A stretch of DNA of 64,000 nt from Psammoneis japonica (lineage: Eukaryota). Both the position numbers and the translations under genes were made by a program. Every line of letters begins with the position of its first letter. The first letter of the stretch is position 1. The notes under the pieces are model-generated. The model saw only the letters and a program-made list of their open reading frames with translations, ran no database searches and was not told the DNA's origin. Below, in pieces: positions 3,210-39,193 of this stretch. The stretch is from assembly GCA_008632985.1 (NCBI GenBank), contig QPGO01000108.1, positions 114,476 to 178,475 of the forward strand. Reading direction: 5' to 3'.

Positions 3210-4445
3210 TTGAAGAAAAAATGGATTGAAGCAAAGGAACACCTTCAAATGCACCCACAAGCAATGAATGAGATCACAACTTTGTTTGATGGTGCATCTG
3301 TTCTTCACATTCTTGCCTGTCAATTCAAACATGTCATTAAATTGAAACAAGATGATGTCTGTGATGATCATGAAGATGAAACGGAAGAAGGGGCCATGAT
3401 TTCCCGCAAAACATGTGACTTTGTGCAGTCATCATTTGACACAGCTTTCAATGGCGATGATTTAGATTCTTCTGTGAAACAGGCACTTGCATGATCAATG
3501 TTGTTTTGCCATGACACAAATGGAAATGTGCCACTGCAGAACCATGTTTGCTGCAACATGACTGCAGCAAATCCAGCACTTGTAAAGATTCTTCTTGATT
3601 TGGCTCAAATGATCTCTCCAACAACTCTGTGCAAATTGGTCACTGCCAAAAGTGACTCAGGTGTGACAGTGTTGCATTTTGTGGCCGCGGGGAGGTGCCA
3701 GCACCAGATTTTGGAGCTTCCAATGGCTTGTTGCAGTGATGCCCCATCAGAGGATCCTGCTTTGATTCCAGATGAAGATGGCAAATCTATTCTGCACAGG
3801 GTGAGTGTTGTTGTTCAATCCCCAAGGCATTGGAAGCTGCTGTTGGGACATGGTGCTGAAGGACTTGTGCATCAACATGATGGGTGTTTGTTTCCAATTG
3901 ATGTGATGTTTCAAGAGGCTGATGATTTTGAGAGACCACAAGAGTCCATCTGTGAAATCATTGATCTCATGTTGCATGCTCACTTTGGAAAACTCGAAGC
4001 AGCATCAGAAGACTGGTTTCCACTTCATGCTTTGGCACAAGCACTCTTTTGTCGTCTGCACATGTTGGAGGTTCTCCTTGAAATGTCTGACCAGAGCAAT
4101 CAGCTTTTGACCTTCAATCATCAAGGCATGTTGCCAATTCATGCAGCAGAAGCAGCACAGCCCATGCCAAAGTTGCTGCTGAGAGTCAACCAAACTCCAC
4201 TTGACCAGCTTGAAATCATCCGATCGAGTCAATCTTGTCATTGTTTGGAAAAGATCCCCAGTGAAAAAATTGTCAACCCAATGATGCCAAAGATTCTTCT
4301 CAAAACATCTGGCAGGAGCAACCAGCTCTTGACCTGCAACCATCAAGGCATGTTGCCACTTGTTTTTTTCCACTGAGAGTCAACTGAGCTCCACTTGGAC
4401 AGCTTGAGCTTTGCCCAATCAAGTCAATCTTGTCATTGTTTGGAG
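3210..4445 (+). pseudogene. Hypermutated ankyrin-repeat-like gene remnant with an internal duplication
   Basis: Motifs DTNGNVPL, SDSGVTVLHFVA, DEDGKSILH, FNHQGMLPIHAA; the segment at about 4075-4250 is repeated at about 4295-4445; in-frame stop at 3492; TA/CG depleted. Confidence 0.55.
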
Positions 4446-18998: not shown

Positions 18999-19194
18999 TT
19001 GCGCCGGCCAACGACAGTGGTGTCCCACACAACCATAGTGGCAGACGATACTTCGTCTACTCAAGCTTGCCTTGTTGGCTCGTGTTAGTGAGTTAGTGCG
19101 TGAGTGCGGTGTGCGCAGTCGTGGCGTCTGTCCACCGACCCGAATTCTCTATTGTGTCTGTACTTCGACTTGCGCCATCCGACGTGGCGTTCTT

Positions 19195-19800
19195 GAGACC
19201 AGGAACGATTGGTCCACTGTCCAACCTTTGCAGCGACACCTCTGCTGTTCATCACGAGCTGACAAATGACACAAGTGGCTGTCCAGCAGTTCCTCTCAGA
19301 GCCAATGTCTGTCAGCCATTGACAAGAAGATGCAAAAAGAGAAAGGTGCAGCCAGAGGAGCTTGACGAAGTCTGGCCGTGCACTCTGAGGGCCAACTCAG
19401 GGAAACCATTTGGAGGTGCAAACATGGTGTTTGCAGGTGATCTCAGATGACCAGAGCTGGTTGGGCATGGAATGCATCACCAACACACAAAGAGAAGCGT
19501 GCACTGAGTCCTTCCAAGAGGAGCGGGCAGGGTCAACCTCCAGAACACTTTGCAGATGGCAAAGTGAGTCTTGAGGACACTGACTCAATTGATGAAAGAG
19601 TCATTGTCAAATGCACTCACAGCAGCTTGCTCCAGATGCTGAACATGCCAAGGTGCCCTGCTCATGGAAACCAAGACAGTGATTCTGTCAATGCTGCTCT
19701 CCTGTTTGAAAGGGCGACAAGTTGTGCGAAGGACATGAAAAAGTGGTTGGCTCTGCAGGTGCACTCAGCAACAACTTGCACAAGTCTGGGCAGCACAGAC
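19195..19800 (+). mobile_element. PIF1-like helicase remnant, copy 2
   Basis: GKPFGGANMVFAGDLR* and N.D.DSVNAALLFE; aligns to 11365-11900. Confidence 0.6.
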
Positions 19801-19819
19801 CTTTTTTTCAACCCGCAGG

Positions 19820-21160
19820 GTGCTCCAACCTCCTGAATGACTGGCTTGAGACATGCAAAACTAGCCTCACCCCGATGGAACGCAAGCATCTGAAACATTG
19901 TCTTGAAACCAACAAAGACCCGTTCCCCGTCTTCCACCTTGCTCTAAAGGTGCACAAGCCCCCTCCGCTCCAATCCCAACCGATCGTCTCTGCCAGCGGT
20001 GGCCTGCTCTATGGCTTGGGCATCTGGGTGGATGACAAGCTCCAGAAAGTTGCCCGCCGCCAACGATCACATTTCAAGAGCTCCCTGGACCTGAAACAAG
20101 CTCTTGTCCAAATGGAAATGCCGTCGCATTGCCTCCTCTTCACATCCGACACCGAGGCCTGCTGCTCCAACACACCTGCCAGAAAAGCACTTCGATTGAT
20201 TGCCTCCCACCTCTGACGTCATGAACATGAACATGATGACGTGCCAATGGATGCCCTCATCAAAGCCCTCCGAATTGTGATGGAAAACAATGTGTTCACC
20301 TTCGGAGACACCACTTGGCACCAGCGCAACGGAACCGCCATGGGCACACCACCCGCCCCTCCATGCGCCACCTTGTGCTGCGCACTCCATGAAGACATGC
20401 TCCTGGAGGAGTTTAGCTCCCAGCTTCTTCATCACACAAATGATTTGTCGATGACGTCTTCAGCATTTGGCACATCACTGACACTGCCACTGATGCCGCC
20501 ACCTGGGAAGCATTTGCCTCCAGACTGAATGACTTCGACATCACATGGATCACGAGCCCACAAAGCCACCAAGTTAACTTCATGGACCTGACGATCTCGC
20601 TCCAAGGCCCCCACATCCACACCACCCTCTACGAAAAAGAAATGAATCTGTGCATGTGCATCCCACCTCACTCAGCTCACCCGCCTGGAGCACTCACCGG
20701 CCTCATTGTGGGTGTGCTCCACCACTTTAAAAACCTGTGCTCCAACACCGCCGACGCAAAAGCAAAAGTGAGCCTGATCCACCTTTGACTGCAAGCCCAG
20801 GGTTGCAAACCCAGCAAACTACAACCGCTCTTCCGAAAAGCACATGACCTCATCTTTGGCAATGCTGACAGAACAACAGAAGAGCCCCAGTCAAACCCAA
20901 TCTTCCTGCACCTTCCTTGCCACCCAAACAACCCACCATCCAGTGAACTGCAGAAATTGTGGAAAGGTGCAATGGCCAACCCTCCCCACTCAGAACCTCT
21001 CTCAAACCTCCAAAATCATGCCTGACAACGCATCAGCCTCAACTGCATGGTTGTTTGTTGCAGTCGCTCCTGCAATCTTAGAAATCTCCTTTCCTGCCGC
21101 ACACTCCGAGCCTCCCATGGCCCCCCAGTTTCGTCCCATCGGATTGCAAACATGGAGGCC

Positions 21161-21163
<3 letters not shown>
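19820..21163 (+). mobile_element. Penelope-like retroelement, 5'-truncated RT copy
   Basis: LKVHKPP, RNGTAMGTPPAPP(Y)AT, FVDD, NFMDLTI, TTLYEK, IPPHSAHPPG, FLHLP(Y)HP and terminal C(Y)SR..NL.NLLS; ends in (GA)n; no GIY-YIG seen. Confidence 0.85.
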
Positions 21164-21197
<34 letters not shown>

Positions 21198-21282
21198 AAC
21201 TTGACTTGAATTGAGTCGATTTAATCAACCCATCTGTCCTTCTTCGGATCTTTTTAACGCAACAATGCCCACCGCACGTTGA

Positions 21283-21352
21283 CAACAACAGCCGGCCGCT
21301 GATGAAGCCACTGCAAAAGTCTCACTCTCCTGATTTTGGCCAACATTGTTGT
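21283..21352 (+). ncRNA. Type I hammerhead ribozyme motif (degenerate)
   Basis: GGCCG-CTGATGA at 21299; CGAAA has decayed to CAAAA; stems I and III are recognisable. Confidence 0.6.
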
Positions 21353-21960
21353 GCCTGCCATTGCTGAAATAGTTGGACAAATGTCCGATTGAGCAGCTCT
21401 GCCTCAGCTGCTTGTGTTGTCATTGTTTGTCACATTTGACGGAAAATTGGCTTCACCAATTTTGATCATTCATTCGAGAGAGAGAGAGATGGGTTTTCAG
21501 CCAAAAGGAGAACAGATCCAGTTTTGCACAAGGGTGTGCAGGGTGTGGAGTTGTGGTGCCTCACAGCATTGACATGCTTGTGGTGGTGAAAGTGGAGCTC
21601 ATGCAGCTGTTGTGAAAAAAGCCACATGCTGGGGCCAGGAGAAGAATGACCTTTGCCACCAGCACGCCTTTGGGCAGCACTGCTGCTTTTGCTCCTGCTG
21701 TGAATGCAACACAGAGGAGGGGGACCACACCCCCCATTGCAGACCCAATGGTCAAACCCAAGTCAACCTCATTTGTGAGACATTTGCCAAACATCCCATG
21801 GTGGGCATGACCACAGAGATGAGAGAGAGAGAGAGAGAGAGAGGAAGCATGCAAGAGAGACAGCGCGTGGTGAACTGACTTGAAAAACAATTGATCTAAT
21901 CAACTTGCCTGTCCTCCACCACCACTTGGATCTTTTTAATGCAACAACCTCAACCACATT

Positions 21961-22008
21961 AACAACAACAGCCAGCCACTGATGAAGCCATCGCGAAAGT
22001 CTCACTCC
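21961..22008 (+). ncRNA. Hammerhead motif with intact core, 3'-truncated
   Basis: CTGATGA-AGCCATCGC-GAAA-GTC at 21979-22001; the 3' strands of stems III and I are missing. Confidence 0.55.
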
Positions 22009-22095
22009 ATGCATTGGCTTGGAACGCAATGAACTGACCCACTTGCCTGTCCTCCACCACTCGGATCTTTTTAAAGCAACAACCTCAACCACATG

Positions 22096-22166
22096 AACAA
22101 CAACATCTGGCTGCTGATGAAGCCACCGTGAAAGTCTCACTCCTGACTTTGGCCAACGTTGTTGTG
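22096..22166 (+). ncRNA. Type I hammerhead ribozyme motif
   Basis: CTGATGA (22114)..GAAA-GTC-tcactcct-GAC-TT-TGGCC-aac-GTTGTTGT; both core boxes are present. Confidence 0.7.
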
Positions 22167-23062
22167 CCTGCCATTTGTCAAAACAGTTGGGCAAATGTCC
22201 GAACTGGCAGCTCTGCCTTTTTGAATGACCTGCCATTGAGCAAATTACAAAAACTCAGGAAAATGGACTGTGTCTCATCCTCCCTGCTTGCAACCACTTG
22301 CCAACCTTTGCAATCATGCTTGACAATGCATTGGCCTTGACTGCCTGATCACATGCTGCAGTTGCTCGCGCAACCTTGGCAACCTTCTTTCACATCGCAA
22401 CCTCCACATCTCCAATGGCCTCCCTGTTTTGTCCTGCCAGATTGCAAACAGGGGGGCCACCAAGAGAGAGAGAGAGAGAGAGAGACAGCACAGTGACTTG
22501 AACTCAAATTGAACCAGTTGATTCAAACCGCCTGTCCCTTGCCCCTTGGATTGTTTCAGCACAACAGCTCAGCTGCTTTTTCACAAAGCACATGGCCTCA
22601 TCTTTGGCAACACTGCAAGAGCACCAGAACCCCAAGACAACCCTCCAATCTTTCTGCATGCACCATTTCACCCAAATGATCCACCACCCAGCAAATTGCA
22701 AAAACTTTGGAAGGGAACCACAGCCCGCCCAGCCTGATCACCACCACTCTCCCAGCTCTGCAATCATGCCCACCAGCACATTGGACTTGACCGCATGATT
22801 GTCTGCTGCAGTTGATCATGCAACCTTGGCAACCTCTTGTCATGCCGCAACCTTCTCATCTCACCCCCCCCCCCCCCAGTTTCGTCCTGCCGGGTTGCAA
22901 ACAGGGAGGCCACTGATTGTTTGTTCGTTCGTTCGTTCGTTCGAGAGAGAGAGAGAGAGACAGTGTGTGGTGAACTGATTTGAACAAACAATCAATGCAG
23001 TCAACTCGCCCATCCCCCCCCACCACTCGGATCTTTCTAATGCAACAACCTCAACCACACAA

Positions 23063-23135
23063 ACAACAACAGCAGCCGGCCGCTGATGAAGCCACCACAA
23101 AAGTCCCACTCCTGACTTTGGCCAACGTTGTTGTG
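23063..23135 (+). ncRNA. Type I hammerhead ribozyme motif (degenerate)
   Basis: CTGATGA at 23083; GAAA box decayed; stems retained. Confidence 0.6.
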
Positions 23136-23402
23136 CCTGCTGTTTGCTGCAACAGTTGGATGAATGTCCAAACTGGTGGCTCCCACCTTGGCTGCTTGCA
23201 CTCTTGTTGGTCAAATTTGATGGAATTTTGTTTGTTCATTTGTTCATTTGTTCATTTGTTTGTTTGTTTGTTTGTTTGTTTGAGAGAGAGAGAGAGAGAG
23301 AGAGAGAGCACAGTGACTTGAATTCAAATTGAATGAGTCAATTCAAACTGCCTGTCCCTTGCCCCTTAGATTGTTTCAACACAACAGCTCACCACACATT
23401 GG

Positions 23403-23472
23403 CAACAGCAGCCGGCCGCTGATGAAGCCACTGCAAAAGTCTCACTCCTGACTTCAGCCAACACTGTTGTGC
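23403..23472 (+). ncRNA. Type I hammerhead ribozyme motif (degenerate)
   Basis: CTGATGA at 23419; GAAA box decayed. Confidence 0.6.
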
Positions 23473-23565
23473 CTGCTGTTCATCTAAATGGTTGGATGAC
23501 TGTCCAAATGGTGGCTCTGCCTTGGCTGCTTTATCTTGATGGAAAATTGGCTTTGCCAATTTGTT

Positions 23566-23600
<35 letters not shown>

Positions 23601-23716
23601 GCATGCAAGAGAGACAGCGTGTGGTGAACTGACTTGAAAAAACAATCAATCCAATCAACTCACCTGTCCTCCACCACCACTTGGATCTTTTCAATGCAAC
23701 AACCTCAACCACGTTA

Positions 23717-23786
23717 ACAACAACAGCCAGCCGCTGATGAGGCCACTGCAAAAGTCTCACTCCTGACTTTGGCCAATGTTGTTGTG
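23717..23786 (+). ncRNA. Type I hammerhead ribozyme motif (degenerate), immediately 5' of the long PLE
   Basis: CTGATGA at 23734; GAAA box decayed; stems retained. Confidence 0.6.
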
Positions 23787-23922
23787 CCTGCCATTTGTTG
23801 AAATGGTTGGACAAATGTCCGAATTGGCAGCTCTGCCTTGGCTGCTGTTGTCATCTGTTTGTCACATTTGATGGAGAATCAGCTGTGCCAATTCTGTTTG
23901 TTTGTAAAAGAGAGAGAGAGAG

Positions 23923-26900
23923 TTGAAAGACAACAATGGACACTGTGACCAAGAGACCAGCATCCCCAAACGTGCACGTTTTGATTCAACTGCAGTGAGT
24001 TCTGCCCAGCAGCAGCCAAGGACACCCCTTGCCACTGCTGCCCAATGCATCAGGGACCATGTCGCATTGCTCCAACCCAAGACAGCCACCATCCTTGAGA
24101 GGCTTGTGCTGCAACACCTTCAACTGCAAGCCAGGGCCCATGACAAGGCCTTTCACATCAAAAGGATGACTCATGACAAGGAGTTTGTCCCCTGCTCAGC
24201 CAGAATCAATTTCAAACTTCAAATGTTGAAAGCAGCTGAACAGAGCCAGGAGTTTGCAGCTCTGCAGGAGGAAACAAACAACCTTGTCAAAAACACCCAA
24301 AAAAATGCCTTCAAAAAGCATGTCATCACTGCCACCAAGATTGAATGCAAAGTCCTTTGAGAAGAAATCATGGAGTTCTGCACAAAAGCCATCTGACTCT
24401 CAACAGAAAGCTTCACCATGGCAGACAGTGTCGCCAAGCCTGTTGACACTGCAGCAGTCACTCCACTTGACTGCTGCCATGTGAGTCCCTGCTCAAGTGT
24501 GTCAAAGTCCATCACAATCTAAGACTGGCCAGCATGCAAGAAGAAAATGGCACCGGGGATTCTCCATTTCCAACACAGCTGCAAGCAACAGCACAAGCAC
24601 CAACACTCACCGCAGCCCAGCAACAAGCCAAAAGCCAACTTGACAAAATCTTTCAAGCTCTGGAGCGCATCTTTTTCTCTCCTTGGGACATCTGCTTGGA
24701 AGCAAAAAAAAAACCATGACATCAGTCTCCCATTCAAAAAGATGGACAAGGAGCACTTCAAGTTGGAAGCAATGGAAAACACCAACTTGGAAATTGACGG
24801 AGAACCTGCAGTCAATCCTGCCACCCTGAAAGAACTCGTTTGCAAGGAGACAGAGAAAAATGCAAAAAAGCTGACTCAGCAGGTCAACTTGCTCTCGCAG
24901 CATGTCAAATCAATGAAACAACAGTCATCAAACAAACAGAGGAGGGGCCCAACCACCAACGCCGGCACCTCATCACAAAAAGAAAAAGGCAAAGGTGCCT
25001 CATTGGGTTGCTCAAGGAAACAAAACGCCCTCCACGCGACCGCAGAGCCAATGATGCTGACAAAGACACCGCTGGTGCCAACAAAAACAATCGCTGCCAC
25101 ACCAAATCAAAACAGCCATCAAAAAAGAAGCAGCAGTGCTCCAACACCAACTGGAACAGGAGCCAGAGACAATGTCAGCACAAATCTACCAAATGCATGG
25201 ATTTGTTGCTGATCTCTCCAAATTGCTCTCACACATCGCCTTCCTGCACCTTGGTGACATGCCTGCTTGGTGCTGCTTTGGCAGACCGTCACACCTCCTC
25301 TCCTTTCACAACTGCACATCTGTGTTCAAATCACCAAAGAACTTCAAATCACTCCTTGGTCTCAGCCTCAAGTTCATCCCTGCACCTCACTTCGCTGACA
25401 GTGGCAAGTCACTCAAGTTCCAAGACCACATGCTTGGACATTTCAAGCTGGACCTGGACAAACGCGACTGCTTTGCAAATGCACCAATCAACAACAATGA
25501 AGACTGCTGCAACCCAAGAATGCATCTCCGACCCAACTGGATGCCACCCTCTTGGAATGAAGCCAAAATTGTTGAGTGCCGCTGCGTGAATTTCAAAACA
25601 AAACTCATGCAGCTTTTTGCCAAACGCCATGGTAAAACCAACCTCCTGCCCCGCCAATGCCACGCCCTCACCCATTTGCACAAACAAGATGACTTTGTGA
25701 TTGCCCAATGTGAAAAGAACCCGGGCCCTGCCATTGTTGAAAAAACCAAACACATCAAAATGGCATGCTGCGATCACCTCAACAATGCAGCCGCGTGCCA
25801 CCATCTTAGCAACTCCAAAGCCACCGTGTGCAAATGCCGCATCAAAAAGCTTCTTGCTGACTGGCTCAGAACACACAAAGCCAATCTAACCCCAATGGAA
25901 TGTGAGCATCTCAAACATCACATTGAGACAAATGAAACCCCACCCCCTGTCTTCTGCCTCACTTTGAAGGTGCACAAGCCTCCACCACTTAAATCGCAAC
26001 CCATCGTCTGTGCAAGCGGCAGCTTGCTGCATGGCTTGGGCATCTGGGCAGACACTGAACTATAAAAAGTCATGCATGAGCAACCACCACACTTTAAAAG
26101 CTTGTTGGACCTCAAAAATGAATTGGCCCAAATGGCGGTGCCACCGGACTGCCTCCTCTTCACTTCTGATGCTGAGCCCTGCTGCTCAAACATCCCAACA
26201 AGCAAAGCACTTCAAGCAATTGCAGCCTTCCTGCAATGACATGAGAGTGAATTCCAAGATGTCCCAACAAAGGCCCTCATCAGAGCCCTCCACATTGCAA
26301 TGAAACACAACGTCTTTGCCTTTGGAGACACTGCATGGCTTCAACAAAATGGCGCTGCAATGGGCACACCACCTGACTCCTGGAGGAGTCAGGCGCCAAC
26401 CTTCTCTTCTGCAAGAGATTCGTTGACAATGCATTTGGCATTTGGAAAATCACTGAGCCTGCCACCGACACCGCATGTTGGAGAGCATTTGCACCCAAAA
26501 TGCATGACTGCGACATTGATTGGGTCACGAGCTCCAGACCACACACCACAAACTTCATGGACTTCACTGTCACACTCCAGGGCTCTCGCCTGCACACCAC
26601 CACTCTCCACAAGAAAGCAATGAATCCATGTCCACACATTCCACCACACTCAGCCCATCTGCCTGGAGTGCTTGCTGGCCCAATTGTGTGAATGCTCTTC
26701 TGCTTCAAGAACCTTTGCTCCGATCCAACCAGTGCCAAAGCAAAAATGAAACTTCTTGATCTTTGCCTGCTTGCCCGAGGCTGCAAGCCCAGCAAGCTTC
26801 AACCCATCTTTCAAAAAGCACACGACCACTTTTTTGGAAATGCGATGACTGCAGAAGCGCCCCCATCCAGCCCCCCCATCCAGCCCCCCCATCTTCCTCC

Positions 26901-27160
26901 ATGTCCCACATCACCCACATGACCCACCATTGAGTGAATTGCAGAAGGCCTGGAAAGGAACAATGGCTTCTTCCCCTTGCTCCCAACCACTTGCCAACAT
27001 TCAAAATCACAACCAACAACGCATCGGCTTGGAACACATGACAGCTTGTCCCAGCTGATCATGCAACCTTGGCAACCTCCTCTTGCATCCCATTCTTTGC
27101 ACACCTCTGCTGCCCCCCCAGCTTCATCCCACCGGATTGCAAACAGGGAGGCCACCAAGA
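23923..27160 (+). mobile_element. Penelope-like retroelement, near full length: helical N-terminal/ORF1 region plus RT, no endonuclease detected
   Basis: ORF1-like DKEFVP(R)SARINFKL; RT region LLGLSLKFIP, (D)KN(L)GPAIV, LKVHKPP, NGAAMGTPP, KRFVD, NFMDFTV, IPPHSAH; same 3' end GGATTGCAAACAGGGAGGCCAC followed by (GA)n. Confidence 0.88.
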
Positions 27161-27182
27161 GTTTTGTTCGTTCATTCATTCA

Positions 27183-27214
<32 letters not shown>

Positions 27215-28208
27215 CAAGCAGTGAAGGCCTGTTCCAGCTCCAGGTGCTCCGCGTGGGTTCGATCCCATCATTGGCCCATTTTTGGGTTCAGCGCAAATGA
27301 CTTTTTCAAAATCCGTTTTTTGCCAAATCGAAGGGCAAGCCACCGAATCGAAAAATTTGCGACATTGCAAAATTTGCGACAAATTCCGAATCCCCGCACA
27401 ATCATCGCGCGGCGAGTCGAGAAACGACCCTTGTCACCCTCCAAGATCGTCTTTGCGACGCGGCCAACATCCTCTGGTGCAATTCAAGGTGCAGGCGTTC
27501 TTTCTACTTCGATTAAGAAAAGATATGATGCACGAGAAATGACAAGAAATCCTTATTTTCAAAGGAAATTGCCTTCTCGTGACAGCAACTCATGCCGACG
27601 CATCGCAAGATTTCAACAAAAAATGACCTTTTTGGATGATTACACCGCCTTTCCTCACAAACAAAACGTCACATAGCTCGTCATAATGATGACAATCTGA
27701 TTGGTTTGTTGTTTCATGTCACTTGCAGACCTTCGGTTGTCGAAACAGCATCATTTGCTCATTTGAAGCGAAAAATGAAGCACTCAGAGACCTCGCACGT
27801 GCTTTCATCGTGAAAAAATTCAAGCCATTTGTTTTTATAAATTAATTTGCGATTCGCAAATTTTGCGTTTCAGCAGCAAGTGTACACTTTGCATGTGTTT
27901 TCGGGTGTACACTCACCTTTCGATTTTCGAAATGATCAAAAATGAAGGACTCAATTGTGCCAAATGTGATTTTCGGCTGGTGTCCCATTCTACGTGAAAA
28001 ATGCTCGTGATCACTCACTTTTTCATTTGTCGGAGCTCGTGTTTTTGGTCTTCTTCAACTCAACTGACGTCCGAACATGCCTCATTTCTGCAGACACAAT
28101 GCAGTTAATTTGATTGAGCACGCCAAAAAAATGTGTCCTCTCGACTTGCCATCCGTCTCATCCACCAGCCCTCTCGATGCACACTTTCAATCAAATTTCC
28201 AGTGCATC

Positions 28209-31200
28209 ATGGGCAACAAAAGGAAGAAGCAAAATGGAGTTGGCCGTCGACACAAGTCAGGGACTGGCAACAGCAAAAACAAGAAGCCTTGTCATGAACT
28301 TGAAACACACTCCACGGTCTCCAACCATGTCGTTGCTGCAGCTGAAGCAGCTGCAGCTGCTCCCTTCAATCCGAACAACCCGAACTCTGCTGCCTCCGTC
28401 ACTCCCTCCGTTGCTCCCACCGACCTGGCTGCTTTCAACCCAAACCCCTCCACAGAACACCTCACTCATTGTCCAGTGTCATCCTTGCCAAGACCGCCTG
28501 GCCCCTCCCAAATGCACACTGCAGGAGCGGCCACCACTCCCTCCAACCCTGACTCTGACAATGCAGCCGTCACTCCCTCCGTTGCTCCCACCAACCTGGC
28601 TGCTTTCAACCCGAACACCTCCAAGGAACACCCCACTCATTGTCCAGGGTCATCCTTGCCAAGACAGCCAGGCCCCTCCCAAATGCACACTGCAGGAGCG
28701 GCCGCCACTCCCTCCAACCCCAACTCTGACAATGCCGCCGTCACTCCCTCTGTCGCTTCGGCCAACCGAACTGCTGTCAACCTCACCGCCTCCCAAGGTT
28801 GCCCCACTTTTAATCCTCATGCATTCGAAGCAACCCACAAAGATCCCCAACAGGCACTTTGTCATGCAGCGGTCAAAGTGAGAGAAGGAGTGTTGTCTTG
28901 CGCCGCCACTCAAGAACAACAAATCTGTGCGTTTGTGCATGCTTTGCATTTTCCCGAAATGGCCCCATTTCTTCAGGCTTGTAATTTGACATTGCTGAAA
29001 ACAAATGCTGCGGCCTTGCAAATTGCCAAGCAGTTGGGCAAAATGTGGGCACGTGCCAACGACACCAGCAATGGTCAACACCTCGCTGACGACAAAAAAT
29101 CGTTTGTCCGTGCTCTTGCAACTGGAATCTCCGGTTCACCAGAAAAATCTGCCGAAGAGGAAAAGTTGTCTTCCCATGACTGCGCCAAGGCACTTGGCCT
29201 GAAACGGAGCACTGTTTGTCGCCAAATGAAGAAGGGAAAGATTGCCAGAGAGGCATTGCTTTCAAACACTGACGATGTCATGTGGTCTTCAGTGCAACCC
29301 CGTCGGCGTCCTCACAAAGTTTCCCCTGAGATCCGAAAGGCATTTGTGCACTGGTTGTCAAATCATCCCAACATGGTGCAGTCTCCCAACACACGAGACA
29401 TGATTCTCATTAAAGATGAAGATGGAAACAAGAAACGAGTGAACAAATGGCTGCACAATGTGTCCATGCGCAAGTGTCTGTTGGCGGATTCGAACATGCA
29501 CGTGATGCCAATGGCAAGACCCTCATCAGTGACATGATGTTTCGATTTTTGATTCCCAAGCAGTGTCGAAAAATGAACGCAAGTCAACGCAGCATGTGTC
29601 AATGCAGCGATTGCACCAATGCCAATTTTCTACAAGATGCATTGAACAGGTTTCGAAGGAAGCTTTCAAAAGAGATGGAGGTGGAGCAAAATTGGTTGAA
29701 GCTTGCGAGTGAGGATCCTGAGAACTTGGAGAACTGTGACAGTGCCCTTGGCAAATTGGAGGAAACAATGCGTGTCTGTCAAGAGGAAGCGTTTGGCCCC
29801 AACGGCCATCACCTTCATCCTAAAGCCCAAGATGCAGTTGCAACCATCATTTGTGGCAACGTCAATGGTCAGGATCATCCTCATTGGAAATGCATTTTGG
29901 GTGAATGCGAGCATTGCCCATCCCATCCAACTCCATTGTTGGGACAGAATGAAAGTCCCGGTGCACCCCAAGTTTTGTTTCAACGTCACTTGACTGTAAA
30001 AAGTTGTTCCAAGCATGGTGTGTGCATGGAAGCATGTCCTGTTTGTGAGGCAGATCCAGATGGGAACAAGGGTGCAAAGGTGAAATGCAGGACCTTGTTG
30101 ACAAGGTTCCGAAAACCAGTCGGTGTCTTTACAAAAGAGCACTGCATTCCAAGTTTAGAGAAGCTCCGCTGCCACCTTCCCCATGTGGTCATTCTTGGGA
30201 AAAATCATTGCATGGAAATGCGTTGCAAAGCATTTGAGTCAACACCCAACAGCCTGTTCACATCTCATGACCACTCCGAGAGTGTCAGAAGGCAGAGTTC
30301 AACAACCAAGTTCAGGGTGACCATTGTGGCAACAACCGAACATTGTCAATCGAAGGAAGAGTTTGCGATGCAATGGTTGACAAAGGGCTTCAGAAAACAC
30401 ATCATGCGCATCTCTCTGACTCTTCCAAGCAAGATGCCACCACCACCAATGCTCGCTTGGAAAAGTTTGTCACCTGGTTAAAAAACCGCAACCTGTGTGA
30501 GGCGCGGCTTGTGATTTGGGATCACACTGATGGTTGTGCCAAACAACACCGATGTGCTTTGGCGCTGTGCTTGTTGTCTGTCTTTGCGCACAAACACAAC
30601 ATTGTGTTTGACCGTGCCATTGGAGCACCTGGACATGGCAAAGGAGAGGTTGATGGCATTGGAGCCTGCATCAAATCACTCATGCATCGAGAAATGCAGT
30701 CCACAACTGTTGCAGGAGTCAATGACAAGGATGGGAAAATTGGACCTGAAGCTTTGGTCATGGATGACAACAGTGTTGTAGCTGCACACAGTCATGCAAA
30801 GGAATGTCACAAAACAGTCACAAAGAACAAGAGTGCTTTCGGCACAGTTGGTTGCAGAAAACATGCCAAGAGGGAATCCCTTTGAAAGTCAATGGAAAGG
30901 GTGCATTGTCTGCAGGAAGCTGACAAAGTTCTTGGCTCTTCAATCAAAGTCAAGTTGACTGGATTGGTGCAAGTGCACATGCACCATTGTGGCATTGGAG
31001 CCTTGTGCCATTTCCGATTTGAACCTCTTTTCCCCATTGGCTGGGCTGCGATGCGAAGAATTCCTTGTGCTTGTGAAGCCTGCCTGGATCAGCTGAAACG
31101 GCCTTGGGTTAAAAATGTCAAGCCAACAGAGCAGCCACGACATGCAGGTGGCAACCGAGCTTGCAAACTGTGGCCCATCTTTGAGGGACTGAACGATTGG

Positions 31201-31800
31201 CAAGTGTGTCAGGTGATTCAAACAGATGAGAGTGACGCCGACGAGGTGCAGCTGGTTCACAAATCTGTGTTGGACTTCCTGACTGAGGAAATGGCCAAGG
31301 AAATTGTTCCAAACAGCTGTGCCGCATTGTCTTGTGAATCTGAGGAGGGGCTCCATCTGCTGCAATGGGATGAACTCCCCCACAAAGCACAGGAGGACGA
31401 GGTTTGGAAAGAGTTTGACCCACCCATGACTGTTGAGGCCGGTGAATGGGTTTGCAAGGGAGTGCATCTTAACCCTGTTCCACGGGCCAGAGGATGGCAC
31501 ACTCCCAGTGATGCTGAGGAATGCAAGACAAGAGTGTTGCTCAAGCAAATTGCAGTTGGCAGCATTGAGCTTGATGAACCATCAGCCAATCTGGAGCTGC
31601 CAAGTGCATGCATGAAGGAACTCTGGATGCCATCTGACAGTGGGAGGCAATGGATTGTTTTGAGGACTGTTCAGACGAGGTGGAGGAACAAGACATCGAA
31701 ACTGGTGAGTGGGGGGGAGAGAATGACGACATGGAAGACACTGTGGATGATGATGAGAGCACGGCAGGGGACAGTGACAGCAACAATTCGGACAAATAAA
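28209..31800 (+). pseudogene. Sola2-like DDE transposase, hypermutated and frameshifted
   Basis: C.C.DC, KCILGECEHC, D(Y)SE, LSD..KQD, WDHTDGCAKQ(Y)R and APGHGKGEVDGIG match the DG..QY and GHGKG..DG motifs of Sola2-type transposases; RRIPCAC..C follows downstream. Confidence 0.75.
28396..28755 (+). repeat. 171-bp (57-codon) tandem repeat in the transposase N-terminus
   Basis: CCGTCACTCCCTC at 28396, 28567 and 28738. Confidence 0.9.
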
Positions 31801-34800
31801 ATGGCAATGTCATGCAACTAGATTGACCATCCAACACAAAAGCTTTCCTTTTTGCACGCAACTTCTGCTGCACCACCCTGGGAAGTTCGAACTGGTGCAC
31901 CATGAACACTTGTTGCAGACGCTTTTTCGCCACACATTTCACCTCATGTTCCTCGTTCCCAAGACACCAATTGAAACACTTGATGTCCTTTGCTGGCAAT
32001 GCAAAAGGGTGGTTGGAATCAAAGATCCATCCATGGTGCAAGGCAATGCAGTGGTTGTTCACAAGATGGCACAAAGTTGTGAAGTCATCATTGCAGGTCG
32101 TCACGTCAAATTCACCACCTGCTGCAAGGGAAATTGTTCGATCCACACTGCCGCAAAACTTCATGTTTGAGTTCTCAGGCGGGAATTTTTCTTTCAAACG
32201 ACCGTTCAACATGTTCTTTGCAAACAACATGCGCTTGTTGTCAGTGTCAGCACAGTTGGCAGATGTTTGAATGTGAGAAGCAATGCAGTCTCTCATTTCC
32301 ACGTCACCAGCACAATCAAGAACACTGGCCAGGGAGGAAAAAACGCAAGTGTTGTTTTGTCCTTGCTGCAGGAATTTCATGGGTGGACCGCTCGTCGGCA
32401 AGTTGCTGTTCGATGGCATCAACATGTTTCCTTCCGGCAAGGAGCAACAACCATCCGATGGCTTCAATTCTTTCAAATCTTTCCACACATCTGGAAACCG
32501 AAACTTAAAATTGCACTCAGCCCAATCCAGGGCCACATGCATGGGACGGTTCCCCTCCAAGCTGCAGCCAATGAAATCAGCTCCCCGCCCAACAGGTGGA
32601 AGTTTTTGAATCTCCGCTTCAGCCAATCTCTTCAGTTTGGCAATCTGTGGTGGGTTGCAAATTGATTCCACCTTGTTCTTAATCTCGTCCCTGCATTTTC
32701 AATTGAGTTGCTGGGGAATGTTTGGTTTGTGTTTGGCACGTGCAATGAGGCCCGCACACATGTTCATGGGATGGCCGTTCATTTCATCGTGTCGCAAGTC
32801 AAACCATGGTTCCCACAACATGACGCCCTTGTTTTTCCCTTCAAAGCAACCAAACAAGTGAGGAACATCTCCTTCGGAATCACCAGGACGCTGACGCCTG
32901 CTGTTCCATTTGCTTGGATCAATCCAAGTGAGTTTTTTAACCTGCAACATCACTTGAGCGTCTTTGCACTCACACTCATGTTGATCCCTTTCTTGTTGGT
33001 GTTGCTGCGCTTTGGTCAGCCGATGCCATGAAGTGTCTCCTTTTGGCCTTGGTTTTGGGACAGAGCTGCGAAGGCCAATGAGATCCTCATCCTCATGCAC
33101 TCCAGGGATTTCTTTCAAAAGCTGATGTGAGCGTCTGCAAAAAGCCCCCCCCCACCATCTCCCACTTCTCTTCTGCAGCCGGGGCTTTCTTCCTCTTGTC
33201 TCTTGCAGCCTTGGCTTTCTCCCTCTTCTCTTGGGCAGTCTTGGATTTCTCCCTCTTCTCTTCTGCAGCTGCAGAAACTTCTTCCTTGTGTTCATCGTCC
33301 TCCTCATCCTCAGTTTCCTCTGGATCTTGCTCCTCCTGGATTTCATCTTGCACACCGTCATCTTCCTCCTCTTCCTCCTCTTCCTCAGTTGACTGATCCA
33401 TCGCCCCATCTTCCTCCTCTTCCTCAGCCGATTGATCCATGGCCCCATCTTCCTCCTCCTGGTTTTTGTCTCGCAGTTGCAACCTTGCAGTGCCAGCCTC
33501 GGCCTTTTGCAGGTCGTCCGTCTCTTCAGTGCCCTCCTTCCCCTCTTCCTCTTCCTCCTCCTCCACCTCTTCCTTCAACCCTGCATCACGGGCACCAGCA
33601 TGATGCATGTGGCGATGGCAATGAATCCTTCTGCAAAACTTGCACCATACAAGTCCAGGAGCTGCCTTGCACCAATCAGCAAGGTGAGCAAGCGGCTCTT
33701 TGAAACAATCCTTCCTGCTTGGTCTGGCAGGGAAGTGAACTTCAACCATCTGTTTGTCTTCGGTGACGGCCTCCACTAACTTGGAGTGTCATTGCGGCTT
33801 GAAAGGCTTGCACCGCTGGTCCAGCGGACAAGCGGTGCCTCTGCATTCACCATCAGAGGTGATCCGCAATGCATGGTTGCACCACCAACCTACAATGATG
33901 TCAAACAAGGCCTCGGATGGCAGTCTGTCATCGGGGTCGAATGGCCCAAATGAGAAAATCCTCCGGCAGCCACTCCTGCAACTCATGAGCACTTTGTGTG
34001 GTGCGTTGGTGGAAGTTCGGGAATGCAGGGATCTTCCTGCATGTCATCATCTGACTGTTCAAGCTTCTCCCTTTTACAATGCTCGTCATGAAAAACACAA
34101 TCGTCGCTGTGATCCACAATGGGCTTCTTCAACTTCTCACAGCTGATGCATGGTTTTCGACGCAGCTTTTCGTCCACCTGCTTCCTCTGAGCGATTTCAT
34201 TTGGAACAGAGCGATGGTTGCAGATTGAACCCCAGTGCTGTTTTGCAGGTAGAACGGGACATCTTGTTTCACATTTGAACTTGACGTCCAACCCCTTCAA
34301 AGCCAACATTTCAAAATTGTTCTTCACCCCCTTTGGAGACTTAATTCGCCACCAACTTTGAAACACGACCTCGCCAAAAGGCAGCCACGCATGTGTCTTT
34401 AAATCTTTGGTCGACTTTTCATCATCGCACGTTTCTAGGTTTTGAATGTTGACCAAAGATGCCAAGTGGAATCGGTGCTTGGCAATGCACGAATGATCAG
34501 CAATGCATCCTCCTTCAACAAGCAGTTCCTCCCAAAAGTCTTCATCCTTGCGGATCTCTGTTGCAACGTTCTGATGCTCGGCGCTGGAATGAGGCAATGC
34601 CAAAACAATTGCAGAGCTCATTGGAGCAATCCTCTCCTTTGCACACAGGGCAACAGTGTTGCCTTGATCATTCATCATGAGATCATCCCAGTCCCAGTGC
34701 TTGCAGACGTTCGCCAGATCAGAACGATCACTCATGGTGTCCGTGATGTCCTCAAAACCCATCACTCCCATGTGATGAGACTTCAAAGTCTTCTGACAAT

Positions 34801-35518
34801 GAAGACATGCATCAAGTCCAATCAAAAAAGGACATGCACCTCAACTCGATGGTGTGATCGATTGACTCTCATCGCCCGCCCCAACTGACACAACCGGAGA
34901 CTCTGTCACAAGGGCGCAATCAACAAGCAGGCCAATGTTTGTCTTGACACGGTGCATCAAAACAGCAGCAACATTTTGCTTGTCCTTCATGGCGTCCCTC
35001 ATCAACATTCCTGATGGCACCACAACCAACATCAAGAGGTGCTGGTTCTTGTCCTTGATGTGTTGTTGGTTCAGTTGCGGTCGATTCTCGGAGTTAAATT
35101 TTTCACAAAACCAATCGACAACAGTGTTGCGGAATGTGTTCCGTGTTTTGGCACTGTTGAACCCATCCAAACCATTCTTGTGATGAAGAACATGAAAGAG
35201 AGGGCTCATCTTCTTTGTTCCACGATCTTCTGTGGTCAAGATGCTCAAATCTACAAGACCTTGAGGGCACTCAAGGGGATCAACTGCATCTTGGAGAGGC
35301 ACAGTGTGCCAAGTTTTGGCTTTGCCCTGCGGTGGGTGATGTTCCGCGAGTGCCTTGACGCAACGCTGGATGCAAAAGGAAACCTTCAACATGCTGGAAG
35401 AGTCATTGTTAGCTTGAGGAGAACTGCCGCCAATGGGGCGCTGCTGGGAGGCTGCTTTGGCCAACGTGTCCATGGCAAATGCACTGCTTTTGCACTTCTG
35501 TTTGTGTGACAAATGCAC
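31800..35518 (-). pseudogene. Accessory/cargo ORF(s) of the transposon: acidic repeat region and papain-like peptidase-type domain
   Basis: Long minus-strand ORF segments (34841-35518, 33983-34825, 33093-33776, 31541-32671); QQGQNNTCVFSSLAS and NHCIAL..GWIFDSN give a Q/C/H/D pattern; Glu-rich EEEDGAMDQS repeats. Confidence 0.5.
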
Positions 35519-35745
35519 TCCAGAGAGGGGGGCAACGTCAGTTGCCGTGAAAGTGACGTGGATGAACAGAGGCAGCCTCTAAGGCAGTTCCAGATGCTGA
35601 AAAGTGTCAAACAGCAAGCTGCACTCCCGCTTGCATGACAAATGCACTCCAGAGAGGGGGCCAACGTCAGTTGCCGCGAAAGTGATGCGGATGAACAGAG
35701 GCAGCCTCTGAGGCAGTTCCAGATGCTGAAAAGTGCAAACAGCAA
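35507..35745. repeat. 129-bp tandem duplication
   Basis: TGACAAATGCACTCCAGAGAGGGGG at 35507 and 35636. Confidence 0.9.
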
Positions 35746-36829
35746 GCGTCACAGTGAAAAAAAACCAAGACAAGTTTGTTCCAGTGGAAACTGTCACTCT
35801 GAGAACACTCGGGCGAATGCTTGAGTTTTGTAGAAATTCTGAAGGCCCTGGTGCAAAACAACCATAAAACAACACGTGAGAAGCAACCAGAAAAATGCAC
35901 GCACGTGGTGACGCGTAAAAAAAAGCACAACAGAACGACTTGCCAAATTTGAAACAAGAGAGCACAAAGAGATGGTGTCATCCGCAACAACAGCAACTCT
36001 TTAGAGCTGCAATTGCATTGCGACAACAATGATGTGACTTTGAAATGAAAGGAACAGGCGGTTCCATGCAACCGCAAGGGCAAAGAGGGGGTTGCGGAGT
36101 GGTGACAGCGGTGTGCTGCGTTGTGGCTGGTGTGTGTTGGGCGGACGGCACGTGTTCATAGAAGTCAGTGTTGTTCTGCGCATCGCCAGAAAAACATTAA
36201 ATGCCAACTGACACGATTCTTCCTGTGACGCATCATGCACCTCAGTTGTTGCACATGAGCACTGGTGTCACAAATGTGTTGCGTCATTGAAACAATCAAT
36301 GTTTGCACAAAGCCAAAAAGTGCGAGCTCTGCTGGGTGGAGACAAAAATGTCTGGTGCTGAAAACTGTGCAGAAAATCTAGCGTGATGAAAAGCGGAGCA
36401 CCTGGAGCTGGAACAGGCCTGAACTGACTTGAAAAAACAATCAATCTAATCTCAACTTGCCTGGCCCGGGGTTGCAAACCCAGCAAACTACAACTGCTCT
36501 TCCAAAAAGCACATGACCTCATCTTTGGCAATGCTGACAGAACAACAGAAGAGCCCCAGTCAAACCCAATCTTCCTGCATCTTCCTCACCACCCAAACGA
36601 CCCGCCATCCAGTGAACTGCAGAAATTGTGGAAAGGTGCAATGGCCAACCCTCCCCACTCACAACCTCTCTCAAACCTTTGAAATCACACCCGACAACGC
36701 ATCGGCCTCAACCGCATGATTGTTTGTTGCAGCTGCTCCTGCAATCTTGGAAATCTCCTTTCCTGCCATGTGCTCCGAGTCTCCCATGGCCCCCCAGTTT
36801 CATCCTGTTGGATTGCAAACATGGAGGCC

Positions 36830-36872
<43 letters not shown>

Positions 36873-36956
36873 AAGTTGACTTGAATTGAGTTGATCCAAT
36901 CAACCCGTCTGTCCTTTTTCGGATCTTTTTAACGCAACAACGCCCGCCGCACGTCA

Positions 36957-37028
36957 ACAACAACAGCCGGCCGCTGATGAAGCCACCGCAAAAGTCTCAT
37001 TCTCCTGACTTCGGCCAATGTTGTTGTG
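36957..37028 (+). ncRNA. Type I hammerhead ribozyme motif with perfect stem I (GGCCG/CGGCC)
   Basis: GGCCG-CTGATGA (36974)-AGCCACCGC-AAAA-GTC..GAC-TT-CGGCC; only G12 is lost (CG->CA). Confidence 0.68.
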
Positions 37029-37267
37029 CCTGCTGTCACTGAAATGGTTGGACAAACATCCAATTGAGCAGCTCCACCTCAGCTGCTTGTGTCGCCATTG
37101 TCACATTTGACAGAAAATTGGCTTTGCCAATTGTGGCTGTTCATTCGAGAGAGAGAGAGAGAGAGAGCAAGCAGTGAACTGACTTGAAAAAACAATCAAT
37201 CTAATCTCAACTTGCCTGTCCTCCACCACCACATGGATCTTTTCAATGCAACAACCTCAACCACATC

Positions 37268-37338
37268 AACAACAACAGCCAGCTGCTGATGAAGCCACCA
37301 CAAAAGTCTCACTCCTGACTTTGGCCAACATTGTTGTG
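37268..37338 (+). ncRNA. Type I hammerhead ribozyme motif (degenerate)
   Basis: CTGATGA at 37286; GAAA box decayed. Confidence 0.55.
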
Positions 37339-39193
37339 CCTGCTGTTTGTCAAAACAGTTGGACAAATGTTCGCACTGGTGGCTCCACCTTGGCTGCTGT
37401 CATCATCTGTTTGTCACATTGTTTGATGGAGAATCGGCTGCACTGATTCTGTTCATTTGTTCAAGAGAGAGAGGAAGCATGCACCACATTTCTGAAAGCA
37501 AGCCAAGTGCCTTTTGTGACAGCCAATGCTGCCACAGGGCACAAGCAACAAGGGGCCAGAGCAGTGTCTGCCATCTGTTTGTCCACAGCTGGAGCCACAT
37601 CCAAAGCTGGGTGTGTGCAAGACTGTCCAGAGTTGAGGCCGCCAGGGGGATGTCTCAGCCTTTGCAAGAACAATGCCTGCTGCTAAAAAAAGAGATCACA
37701 GCAGGCCCTTTTTTGTGTCAGAAGGACACAAGGCCCTTGCCTGGTTGATGAGAGGGCAAAGAGTGGCGTGCTTCTCTGTGGAAGACTGCAGAGAGGTGCC
37801 AGGCTGGAAACAAGATTGGCTTGGAGTGATGCTGCACAGTCATGCTCTAGCTTGTCCAGGTGGGGGCCCAAATTGCTGGACTGCTGAGCTTTGCATTTTT
37901 TGACAACCCAGTGCAAAAAGCATGCACACCTCTGTGCAAAGCTTTGAGTCATTTTGCACCAGTTTGCAGTGCAACTCAACAACATTTTTTGCCCTGCTGT
38001 GTTCTCTGACATCTGCAGAGGAGAGTGCAGCCATGCACACAAAGTTTCCAAAACTTCAAGCATGGAGAGGTGCTAAAGTCTGAAGTTGTGCCACAAAAGT
38101 GGCTGTCAATTTCCACTGCAGAAGGCAAATGCATTCATTGCCTGGTGTGTTGTGAGCTGGAGAGCTTTGTGCAGAGTTCAGTGTGAGGGTGTGGTGTGAA
38201 GCAAAGCTGAAAAACTCCTCTTTTTTCCAAAAAATGTGAAATTTTCCATTCACCCAACACATCAACAGCAAGCAGCAGTTCTCAGAAATTGGCCAAATGT
38301 CTGAGCTTTGTGAGCTCAGCTTGTGACTGCAAGCAGGCAAGACATGACAACACAGCCAAATCAACAACAGCAGCAGTTTGCTCATTTGTGGCTTTGTCAT
38401 GTGTTGCCATGTGAGGCAGCTTTTGATGGCCTCTTCCCACACCCATTGTGTCTCCACTTGTGGCCACGACAACAAGGCAATGAGAAAACAAACACACCGC
38501 GCATCAGCAGCCACATGGCTTGTCAATGTCATTTGTGAAGAAGCTTGGACAAACCTGGAAGACTGCTGCAAAGCTGTGCACAACAGGAGCTTGTGACATG
38601 ACAACATGTGCTGCGTTCACAACCATTCTGTGCTCAAGCCTGTGACTTTTGGGTGTCGTTGATGCCTTTGCTTGACAGAATGACACTTTCAAGACAATCT
38701 GTTGTGCAAGCTCCCTCAATCACACTGTCCAGTCTTGAGCCACCATCTCCTTCTCAATCCTGGCTTGAGTGCCCCTTCTGCCAGCCCTTGCTCCAGTCTG
38801 GCCACCGCAAAAGAAGAGAAGAAGCTTCTGCATCAAGGGCACCAACGAGCTGCTTGCGAGCCTGTCATGACCACCTGCTGAGTCACAGTGGAGCACACAT
38901 CATTCCCTTTGCTCTGTTGAGGACCACCATGGCTCCTCATCCCTTGGAAGCTTCGCCCACCAACTTCTCTTCAGCCAGCTCTCTGCTCTCTTCTTTAATG
39001 AGCCGTCTGCCAGTCCCTTCGTGTGTACGGTAACCAAAATGCCTTGCCAGCAGCAACGCAGCGGCACGGGGCGCGCACAAACCAAGACCATTGCGAACTC
39101 CGAACTGCGAACCCCATCATACCGGCATCTTGGATCTCTCTGTGTTCGCATCCCCCCAAAACAACAAAACAATCCATTCCATCCCTGCTGACT

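Follow-up and report, generated by a model that had tools for sequence, protein, structure and literature searches.

The question raised by this locus is whether a short sequence repeated along a single array is a ribozyme and, if so, to which kind of mobile element it belongs. The DNA analysed here (hereafter the window) is a stretch of 64,000 nucleotides from Psammoneis japonica (assembly GCA_008632985.1, contig QPGO01000108.1, positions 114,476 to 178,475 of the forward strand), for which an earlier inspection of the letters alone (the original prediction) had proposed eight type I hammerhead motifs in tandem modules of a Penelope-like array. [quoted passage not shown]

The heptamer CTGATGA was found on the + strand at all eight positions originally given, i.e., 21299, 21979, 22114, 23083, 23419, 23734, 36974, and 37286 (window coordinates, used throughout). 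Taken alone, it is not enriched in the 64-kb window (25 matches against 18.1 expected, a value reached by 6 of 100 shuffles). All eight sites lie inside one repeated motif of about 57–76 nt, the copies of which, aligned over about 76 nt, have a mean column identity of 86%; the order of its strands (I, II hairpin, III hairpin, I) leaves helix I open, as in type I hammerheads. The copies are listed below, the bit scores being those of R1, a covariance model built from eight environmental motifs, none of which comes from the window:

21289–21346, + strand: hammerhead copy 21299, complete; G12 changed to A; stem III weakened (GATT for GACT); 12.4 bits with filters off.
21969–22024, + strand: hammerhead copy 21979, CGAAAG kept; cut off in loop 3 near 22008; 16.6 bits.
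22104–22159, + strand: hammerhead copy 22114, complete, and alone among the complete copies in keeping the CUGAUGA...GAAA core intact; stems held via G-U pairs; predicted cut between 22149 and 22150; 20.1 bits (E 0.0022 over the whole window).
23073–23128, + strand: hammerhead copy 23083, G12 changed to A; stem II broken (CCAC); 15.5 bits.
23409–23464, + strand: hammerhead copy 23419, G12 changed to A; one C-A mismatch in stem I; 13.7 bits.
23724–23779, + strand: hammerhead copy 23734, G12 changed to A; extra A changed to G; 10.6 bits.
36964–37021, + strand: hammerhead copy 36974, perfect stem I (GGCCG/CGGCC); G12 changed to A; predicted cut between 37011 and 37012; 19.1 bits.
37276–37331, + strand: hammerhead copy 37286, G12 changed to A; stem II broken; partial match at 37282–37325, 9.5 bits.

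What stands of the original count of eight is one repeated motif, complete in seven copies, all of which have U at position 17; copy 21979 is truncated, so that stems III and I have no 3' strand, and adjoins another module fragment. Copies 22114 and 36974 have complete stems, and the original description of the stems, the 2-bp stem II, and the CUU triplet was correct. The GAAA box is kept in two of the eight (GCGAAAG at 21979 and GTGAAAG at 22114); in the other six, A occupies the G12 position, giving AAAA in place of GAAA. The majority sequence of the motif reads ...CACCGCAAAAGTC..., with GCAAAAG as its core part; the consensus proposed originally, with GC-GAAA, is not this majority sequence but a CpG-corrected reconstruction. 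Loop 3 of the window motif (22136–22143) contains CUC/CUCC (UCACUCCU).

The differences among the copies largely bear the mark of CpG loss. Indeed, 13 of the 23 variable columns of the motif are CG to TG or CG to CA changes, and the G12 column itself shows one CG, one TG, and six CA; over the whole window, the observed/expected ratio is 0.61 for CpG and 1.5 for TpG. The CG/TG/CA pattern suggests that the A at G12 in six copies derives from the CpG decay of an ancestral CGAAA. When contigs from one DNA sequencing run of the organism were aligned to the window, the differences listed included a C at 21312, where the window has T (CpG restored), and, in 12 contigs, an A at 23741, where copy 23734 has G (extra A restored). 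The same contigs, used as an estimate of copy number, indicate that the module is multi-copy: 470 of them cover the region over 2.9 kb, with a summed depth of 2090–2940 in the hammerhead bins versus 57–69 over a unique insert described below. All the copies in the window are old, and both of its RT (reverse transcriptase) genes are broken. Since six hammerheads are without G12 and one is truncated, the window copies are to be regarded as relics, of which, judging from their letters, at most one (22104–22159) could still cleave.

The relatives of the motif come from 77 loci on metagenome contigs (designated by L numbers), found by a scan with three full-length RT homologues. A structural descriptor (CTGANGA, no more than one extra base, a stem II of ≥2 bp, GAAA, a stem III of ≥3 bp with the A15.1-U16.1 pair among them, any base but G at position 17, and a stem I of ≥4 bp) was run over the window and the 77 loci (78 sequences); it gave 31 matches, all on the RT strand and none on the opposite one, 30 of which fall in 24 loci. 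The other is copy 22114, the only window copy accepted. Twenty dinucleotide shuffles yielded zero to three matches each (mean 0.65, both strands together). For R1, an ungapped set of eight motifs was used in place of a MAFFT alignment of 25 hammerheads, which had misaligned the 3' halves. On the 77 loci, this model found 43 sites, all on the + strand; on the 64-kb window, its only matches under default filters were five of the eight copies; with filters off, over 19000–38500, all eight copies were among the top nine matches (20.1–9.5 bits), together with one stray match of 10.5 bits.

Covariation of the stems across the family, the absence of which the original prediction had named as part of what would refute it, is strong in these relatives. 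Over 33 distinct sequences and 13 pairs, 90.2% of the cells pair, versus 58.8% after shuffling and 31–42% when the partners are slid; cells in which both partners change number 135 versus 39.3 in shuffled data, and none of 500 shuffles reached the observed values. The G10.1-C11.1 and A15.1-U16.1 pairs are kept in all 33 relatives, and the second pair of stem II (10.2-11.2) occurs in all four Watson-Crick types and is never unpaired. In the core, the columns of G5, A9, the extra A, and GAAA are invariant (33 of 33), C3, U4, A6, and G8 are kept in 29–31 of 33 (the remainder being gaps or single changes), and position 17 is U in 32 relatives and C in one. With this invariant core and these covarying stems, the motif is, as far as comparison among relatives can tell, a genuine type I hammerhead variant, as originally proposed, and the constraints on its sequence are those expected of a catalytic hammerhead.

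The variant has a recognizable signature. An additional A follows CUGAYGA in all 33 relatives fitted to the model and in 26 of the 29 distinct descriptor matches; stem II consists of 2 bp across the family and is capped by a GAAA loop in 19 of 33; stem III has 4–7 bp, with the predicted cut after N-U-U. The window motif shares this family signature, and its stem II hairpin, GCCACCGC, recurs in locus L004. Loop 3 of the relatives contains CUC in 24 of 33 cases and CUCC in 13 of 33; these letters are dispensable for catalysis and may represent a contact with a protein or an RNA.

As for the element that carries the ribozyme, a first Pfam scan of the open reading frames (ORFs) detected no RT, because the gene is fragmented and the Pfam collection used does not match this RT family; a broken RT was recognized at about 25259–27183 by reading the three frames between the arrays. 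Its read-through translation, with X at two stops, has six homologues (260–672 aa, E 7e-84 to 2e-42), three of which are full-length (637–672 aa); DUF8422 is present in all six, HTH_animal also in the three full-length ones, and the nearest Atlas clusters, mostly from rotifers and arthropods, carry both DUF8422 and HTH_animal. The motifs of a PLE-type RT can be read along it, namely a DKN-type box (CDKNLGPA in the relatives and CEKNPGPA in the window), motifs A to C, and the thumb, the DKN box being typical of PLEs (PMC13159263). A Pfam search with the L036 RT gave a weak RVT_1 match only (E 0.0087), and a PDB profile search with the RT alignment gave no match. The RT protein of the relatives has 615–695 aa and ends about 20 residues past a conserved NLGN...PPVSS; their ORF1 product has about 400–470 aa, a basic tail, and no Pfam domain. 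No GIY-YIG endonuclease was detected by Pfam in 90 ORFs of 23900–36800 or in the ORF1 and RT ORFs of L003, L004, and L036, nor was any other nuclease domain found in the window or in the examined ORFs of relatives. The Penelope-like nature of the array was thus rightly recognized from the start, in keeping with its RT motifs and DUF8422/HTH_animal clusters, but, GIY-YIG being absent, the element is of the endonuclease-less kind and not a canonical Penelope element; by its motifs and domains, we classify it as an endonuclease-deficient PLE of the Athena/Coprina type. Among diatoms, Phaeodactylum has recorded Coprina elements (PMC13159263). A profile search gave at least 899 matches to the RT family at E ≤1e-5 among 8000 scored candidates; among the 120 matches listed, none has a name beyond "hypothetical protein", and nearly all are of 615–695 aa on contigs of about 2.2–5.7 kb. 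By these counts, the RT family is an abundant and unannotated retroelement clade in environmental data. Full tandem units, with hammerheads about 3.7 kb apart, are present in L019 and L023.

In the window, the array is composed of the following pieces (TRF, Tandem Repeats Finder):

19710–21163, + strand: RT copy 1, 5'-truncated and decayed; motif C (FVDD) intact; PPVSS just before (GA)n.
21164–21193, + strand: (GA)15 at the "long" microsatellite position, immediately following RT copy 1 (TRF).
21194–23909, + strand: upstream chain, in which modules and fragments meet at (GA)n (self-BLAST, sequence, and TRF).
21194–21475, 21844–22018, 22041–22219, 22486–22571, 22961–23226, 23309–23559, and 23598–23909, + strand: modules and module pieces of the upstream chain.
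22293–22460 and 22585–22916, + strand: RT 3' tails of the upstream chain.
21490–21815: unrelated 326-bp insert in the upstream chain.
21476–21489, 21815–21843, 22463–22485, 22943–22960, 23282–23308, and 23568–23597: (GA)n tracts of the upstream chain.
23910–23922, + strand: short (GA)n, the "short" microsatellite position, 13 nt before the ORF1 ATG at 23936.
23936–25200, + strand: ORF1 of full-length copy 2, with a frameshift soon after its start; no Pfam domain.
25259–27183, + strand: RT ORF of copy 2, with stops at 26063 and 26237 and a frameshift near 26395; motif C is FVDN; no endonuclease domain.
27184–27226, + strand: (GA)n following RT copy 2, then the initial ~12 nt of a module, which resumes at 36420.
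27227–36419, no strand assigned: DNA transposon of 9.2 kb with terminal inverted repeats (TIRs), inside the module; arms at 27219–27252 and 36393–36426; TGAA on both flanks.
36420–37486, + strand: downstream chain, with the module start continued (36420–36463), a 5'-truncated RT tail (36466–36832), (GA)18 (36833–36868), a module (36869–37146), (GA)n (37147–37168), a module (37169–37465), (GA)n (37466–37476), and a 10-nt module-start "tail" (37477–37486).

All the pieces of the array are on the + strand, and unrelated DNA follows the last module start. The translations of RT copy 1 align to the relatives of 637–672 aa, and its nucleotides match those of copy 2 from 19838 onwards at about 71% identity; the ORF1 of the window is 46% identical (E 7e-28) to that of L003, which starts 158 nt after the L003 hammerhead. 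The modules, originally described as tandem, are not simple tandem duplicates: self-BLAST showed that adjacent modules are only 77–83% identical, that some distant ones reach 87–91%, and that three types of module start are interspersed. Local tandem duplication was rejected, as neighbours are not each other's closest relatives; the interspersed subfamilies and the low identity of neighbours indicate that the units arrived by separate events. Short module starts of 10, about 59, and 86 nt after (GA)n resemble the "tail" signature, which has been explained by internal initiation of reverse transcription (Frangieh et al., PMC11167929). The array is interstitial: ordinary genes flank it, and the window contains neither a TTAGGG dimer, even with one mismatch, nor any telomeric repeats. 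Two (GA)n tracts enclose the 326-bp stretch at 21490–21815, which has no relation to the element and a single-copy depth of 57–69; it might be a captured host fragment.

The microsatellites on either side of the ribozyme belong to the layout of the element. The element consists of ORF1, RT, a long microsatellite, a non-coding module of about 270–300 nt with the hammerhead in its middle, and a short microsatellite; in the window, the order is long (GA)n, 96 nt, hammerhead, about 126–130 nt, short (GA)n, and ORF1. The original prediction had placed the hammerhead between (GA)n tracts, past RT and ahead of ORF1; this placement is real in the window and conserved in the relatives. In about 29 of the 77 loci, a repeat starts 19–60 nt after the end of RT, its units being AAC, AG, GT, GTT, ATC, and, once, AAAAC; the hammerhead of the relatives lies 240–420 nt beyond this repeat, versus 96 nt in the window. 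A second, shorter tract with the same unit is found 50–160 nt past the hammerhead and just before ORF1 in 13 loci, and L003 also has like repeats on both sides of its hammerhead, one of the tracts being imperfect. Exactly one module, with matching repeat type, lies between RT and the next ORF1 in 13 loci of deep RT divergence. On the RT tree, from which L033 and L046 were left out, the repeat type changes nine times over 55 labelled rows, versus a mean of 26.3 and a minimum of 21 in shuffled labels (none of 500 was as low as the observed value); the tree shows that, at the level of these sequences, the type of repeat is inherited with the RT lineage, and it says nothing on how the repeats act. 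The RT of the window falls in a supported clade of 11 rows together with AG, GT, and GTT loci; other RT clades have the hammerhead without the repeat. L009 (4007–4304) is the only telomeric-repeat case among the 77 loci: about 160 nt past its hammerhead, (CCTAAC)12 lies at the end of the contig.

Two further observations concern the repeats. The RT frame runs through the microsatellite in L036 (2260–3975), with a poly-Asn tail from (AAC)n, and in L003 (1090–3342), with (Arg-Glu)n from (GA)n; the RT-adjacent repeat may be partly coding. Moreover, in the window and in relatives of the (GA)n type, a short motif, (G)TTCGAGAGAG, often doubled, or TTCG/TTTG repeats precede (GA)n at both repeat positions (L003 3020–3070 and 3470–3505; L035 505–545; window 22917–22960 and 27160–27214).

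A remaining question concerns how such an element might have used its ribozyme and its repeats. The ribozyme occupies the sense strand, with RT on one side and the next ORF1 on the other, and the copies join at repeats. In active elements, it would probably cut read-through or multimeric transcripts 3' of the NUU triplet, and the element-borne microsatellites would probably take the part played in telomere-bound relatives by reverse-complement telomeric repeats; by pairing with a complementary DNA 3' end, they might prime reverse transcription without any endonuclease, as has been proposed for the telomeric tracts. Priming of this kind would also account for copies piling up at repeats, and switching between two like repeats might yield units made of the module only. 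On a larger scale, we can tentatively speculate that a large clade of endonuclease-less PLEs in aquatic protists swapped its telomere-complementary tract for lineage-specific microsatellites flanking the hammerhead at fixed positions, and that the ribozyme-plus-microsatellite module is an integration device, the telomerase-related RT priming by RNA-DNA pairing at (GA)n-, (CAA)n-, and (TG)n-like tracts on broken or replicating microsatellites, or extending such tracts by slippage.

Several facts weigh against this whole reading and have to be set beside it. A hammerhead search, proposed at the outset as a check, had a divided outcome: R1, derived from the relatives, recovers the copies, and the descriptor accepts copy 22114, but the Rfam hammerhead models have no match in the window at the gathering score or in 21000–24000 at E ≤10. 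The same models also miss 11 loci with intact relatives (E up to 1), and their silence can be ascribed to the extra A and the 2-bp stem II, which fall outside them. Minimum-free-energy folding gives stems I and III but misses the 2-bp stem II and predicts hairpins that compete for the core, and neither U17 nor so short a stem II is a strong feature for cleavage. The alignment behind the pair counts was fitted to the structure of the model, which favours that structure, although the margin is large. As regards the array, the predicted cut site is neither the start nor the end of any copy in the window, no (GA)n is present at the upstream edge of the array, near 19.7–19.8 kb, and the copying of whole modules, which include both sides of the cut site, weighs against a simple processing of transcripts into monomers, as originally suggested. 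In the anole element Poseidon, the one PLE examined biochemically, hammerhead mutants left insertion in vitro unchanged, and the cut site was not an end point of any RNA-seq read (PMC11167929); to judge by this analogy, a processing role is not established for any PLE. Contig ends were considered as candidate ribozyme cut sites and rejected, since contigs start or end in repeats or about 11–12 nt upstream of the core.

Some of these facts would fit other explanations. That a conserved repeat stretch merely resembles a hammerhead by chance might be suggested by the lack of CTGATGA enrichment, by the six of eight copies without GAAA, and by the absence of Rfam matches; this idea is effectively refuted, since a model built independently of the window recovers the copies, the matches are exclusive to one strand (31:0 and 43:0) against 0–3 in shuffles, the stems covary strongly, and the CG/TG/CA pattern at G12 is that of a CpG decay product. 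It is, in our opinion, unlikely, though far less so than mere chance, that the hammerhead fold serves as a structural handle in the 3' region of the RNA, binding RT or presenting the repeat to a DNA end, with self-cleavage being incidental or absent. Such a role would fit the lack of effect of hammerhead mutants on in vitro insertion in one PLE (PMC11167929), the recurrent CUC and CUCC of loop 3 (24 and 13 of 33), which catalysis does not require, and a copied unit that is the whole module spanning the cut site. However, a purely structural role would not fix G12, A13, A14, G5, and A9 (invariant) or C3, U4, A6, and G8 (nearly so) in 33 sequences; the A15.1-U16.1 pair and the non-G at position 17 are kept as well, and cleavage as monomers in vitro has been found for fungal PLE hammerheads of broadly this kind (PMC4209133).

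A somewhat better case, although still a doubtful one, can be made for the modules being separate, non-autonomous, retrozyme-like elements of about 315–340 nt (a hammerhead plus one microsatellite) that parasitize the ORF1-RT element, are copied via its RT, possibly through a circular RNA, and home to its microsatellite tail. Three consecutive modules are spaced 336 and 315 nt apart and two more 312 nt, modules exist without coding sequence, their interspersed subfamilies suggest independent insertions, and, according to published views, hammerheads may parasitize PLEs and animal retrozymes use them (PMC8557442, PMC7761336). The summed contig depth, up to 2090–3449 over modules versus 238–568 over RT tails, is a weak hint in the same direction, but ordinary 5' truncation gives the same gradient if the module is the 3' end of the element. 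Moreover, rolling copying of small circles predicts near-identical neighbours, whereas their identity is 77–83%, and one module per RT-ORF1 gap, with a matching repeat, in 13 loci fits a single element better. It is on these grounds that we retain the hammerhead as a built-in part of an endonuclease-less PLE.

PLEs without an endonuclease are regarded as restricted to the ends of chromosomes, since they depend on a free telomeric 3' end. In many lineages of the family described here, heritable microsatellites are found where relatives carry telomeric repeats, and the element can sit inside a chromosome arm. If the microsatellites are indeed pairing sites, this would explain endonuclease-free integration away from telomeres, the colonization of the chromosome interior, and arrays such as that of the window, and it would offer, in culturable diatoms, a tractable system for the role of PLE hammerheads. 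In practical terms, standard annotation misses the variant, since the curated Rfam models do not see it.

The other features of the window can be briefly reported. The 9.2-kb TIR transposon is an insertion and not part of the retroelement; it has 27-bp perfect terminal inverted repeats (94% over arms of 34 nt), a 171-bp tandem repeat at 28396–28782, and long ORFs on both strands with no Pfam match, one of which has cysteine/histidine-rich stretches and GHGKGEVDG. TpA has an observed/expected ratio of only 0.30 in the window, resulting in long stop-free frames in all six frames, so that ORF length alone means little here. The other genes, with long uninterrupted ORFs, encode Sec24, PreP, a protein with a four-fold HA domain, and Sulfotransfer_4; they have a diatom-like appearance. 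At 400–747 (− strand), an RT_RNaseH_2 fragment (E 2.8e-08) represents a piece of a long terminal repeat (LTR) retrotransposon unrelated to the array.

How does this element compare with known systems? In 2014, endonuclease-less PLEs of fungi and protists were reported to carry type I hammerhead variants whose helix III is large (PMC4209133), and the variant described here is like those in being of type I, on the RT strand, and in a repeat flanking an endonuclease-less PLE, as well as in its stable helix III, from which function as a monomer is expected, and its odd-sized helices I and II. The legend of Figure 3 of that work names the diatom Thalassiosira oceanica among the carriers; in the available text of the Cervera 2014 supplement (PDF), the words diatom, protist, Thalassiosira, Phaeodactylum, and Phytophthora do not occur. 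The differences, as far as they can be drawn from the text, are that no microsatellites are mentioned there and that the window copies are decayed relics. The minimal hammerheads of canonical (endonuclease-bearing) metazoan PLEs are likewise of type I and lie in the pseudo-LTRs of tandem copies, but their helix III is of 1–2 bp or absent, with a palindromic loop, and these hammerheads are believed to function as dimers (PMC4209133), whereas the variant reported here has a helix III of 4–7 bp and a minimal helix II.

Athena/Terminon and Coprina elements have no endonuclease either, carry, close to the 3' end, a hammerhead followed by a short repeat tract, and form head-to-tail chains of 5'-truncated copies with short repeats between them (PMC6431247, PMC8557442); L009, with its (CCTAAC)12, has exactly the Athena/Coprina arrangement. 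Unlike them, the window and about 29 loci have a microsatellite (AG, AAC, GT, GTT, or ATC) and not a telomeric repeat; this repeat lies 100–160 nt past the ribozyme and not immediately after it, a longer second tract lies between RT and ribozyme, and the window array is interstitial, without TTAGGG repeats. Metazoan non-LTR retrozymes, thought to be mobilized by PLEs, are also short non-coding head-to-tail units with type I hammerheads (PMC7229834, PMC7761336), and the spacings of 336, 315, and 312 nt are within their range of 170–400 nt, but the neighbours are only 77–83% identical and of mixed subfamilies, the units are separated by microsatellites, and the host is not an animal. PLE copies bounded by microsatellites are known in Neptune, Naiad ((TA)n), and Chlamys ((CA)n/(C)n), where the bias has been ascribed to the GIY-YIG endonuclease or to a zinc-finger linker, most of these clades being without canonical hammerheads (PMC8557442); in contrast, the element studied here has no endonuclease, and its repeats occupy fixed internal positions. 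In the searchable literature on PLEs, hammerheads, and diatoms (excluding Gladyshev & Arkhipova 2007 and Arkhipova et al. 2017), we found no mention of endonuclease-less PLEs flanked by microsatellites. Thus, the association between hammerheads and PLEs is known, and it is the microsatellite architecture around the ribozyme that may be new.

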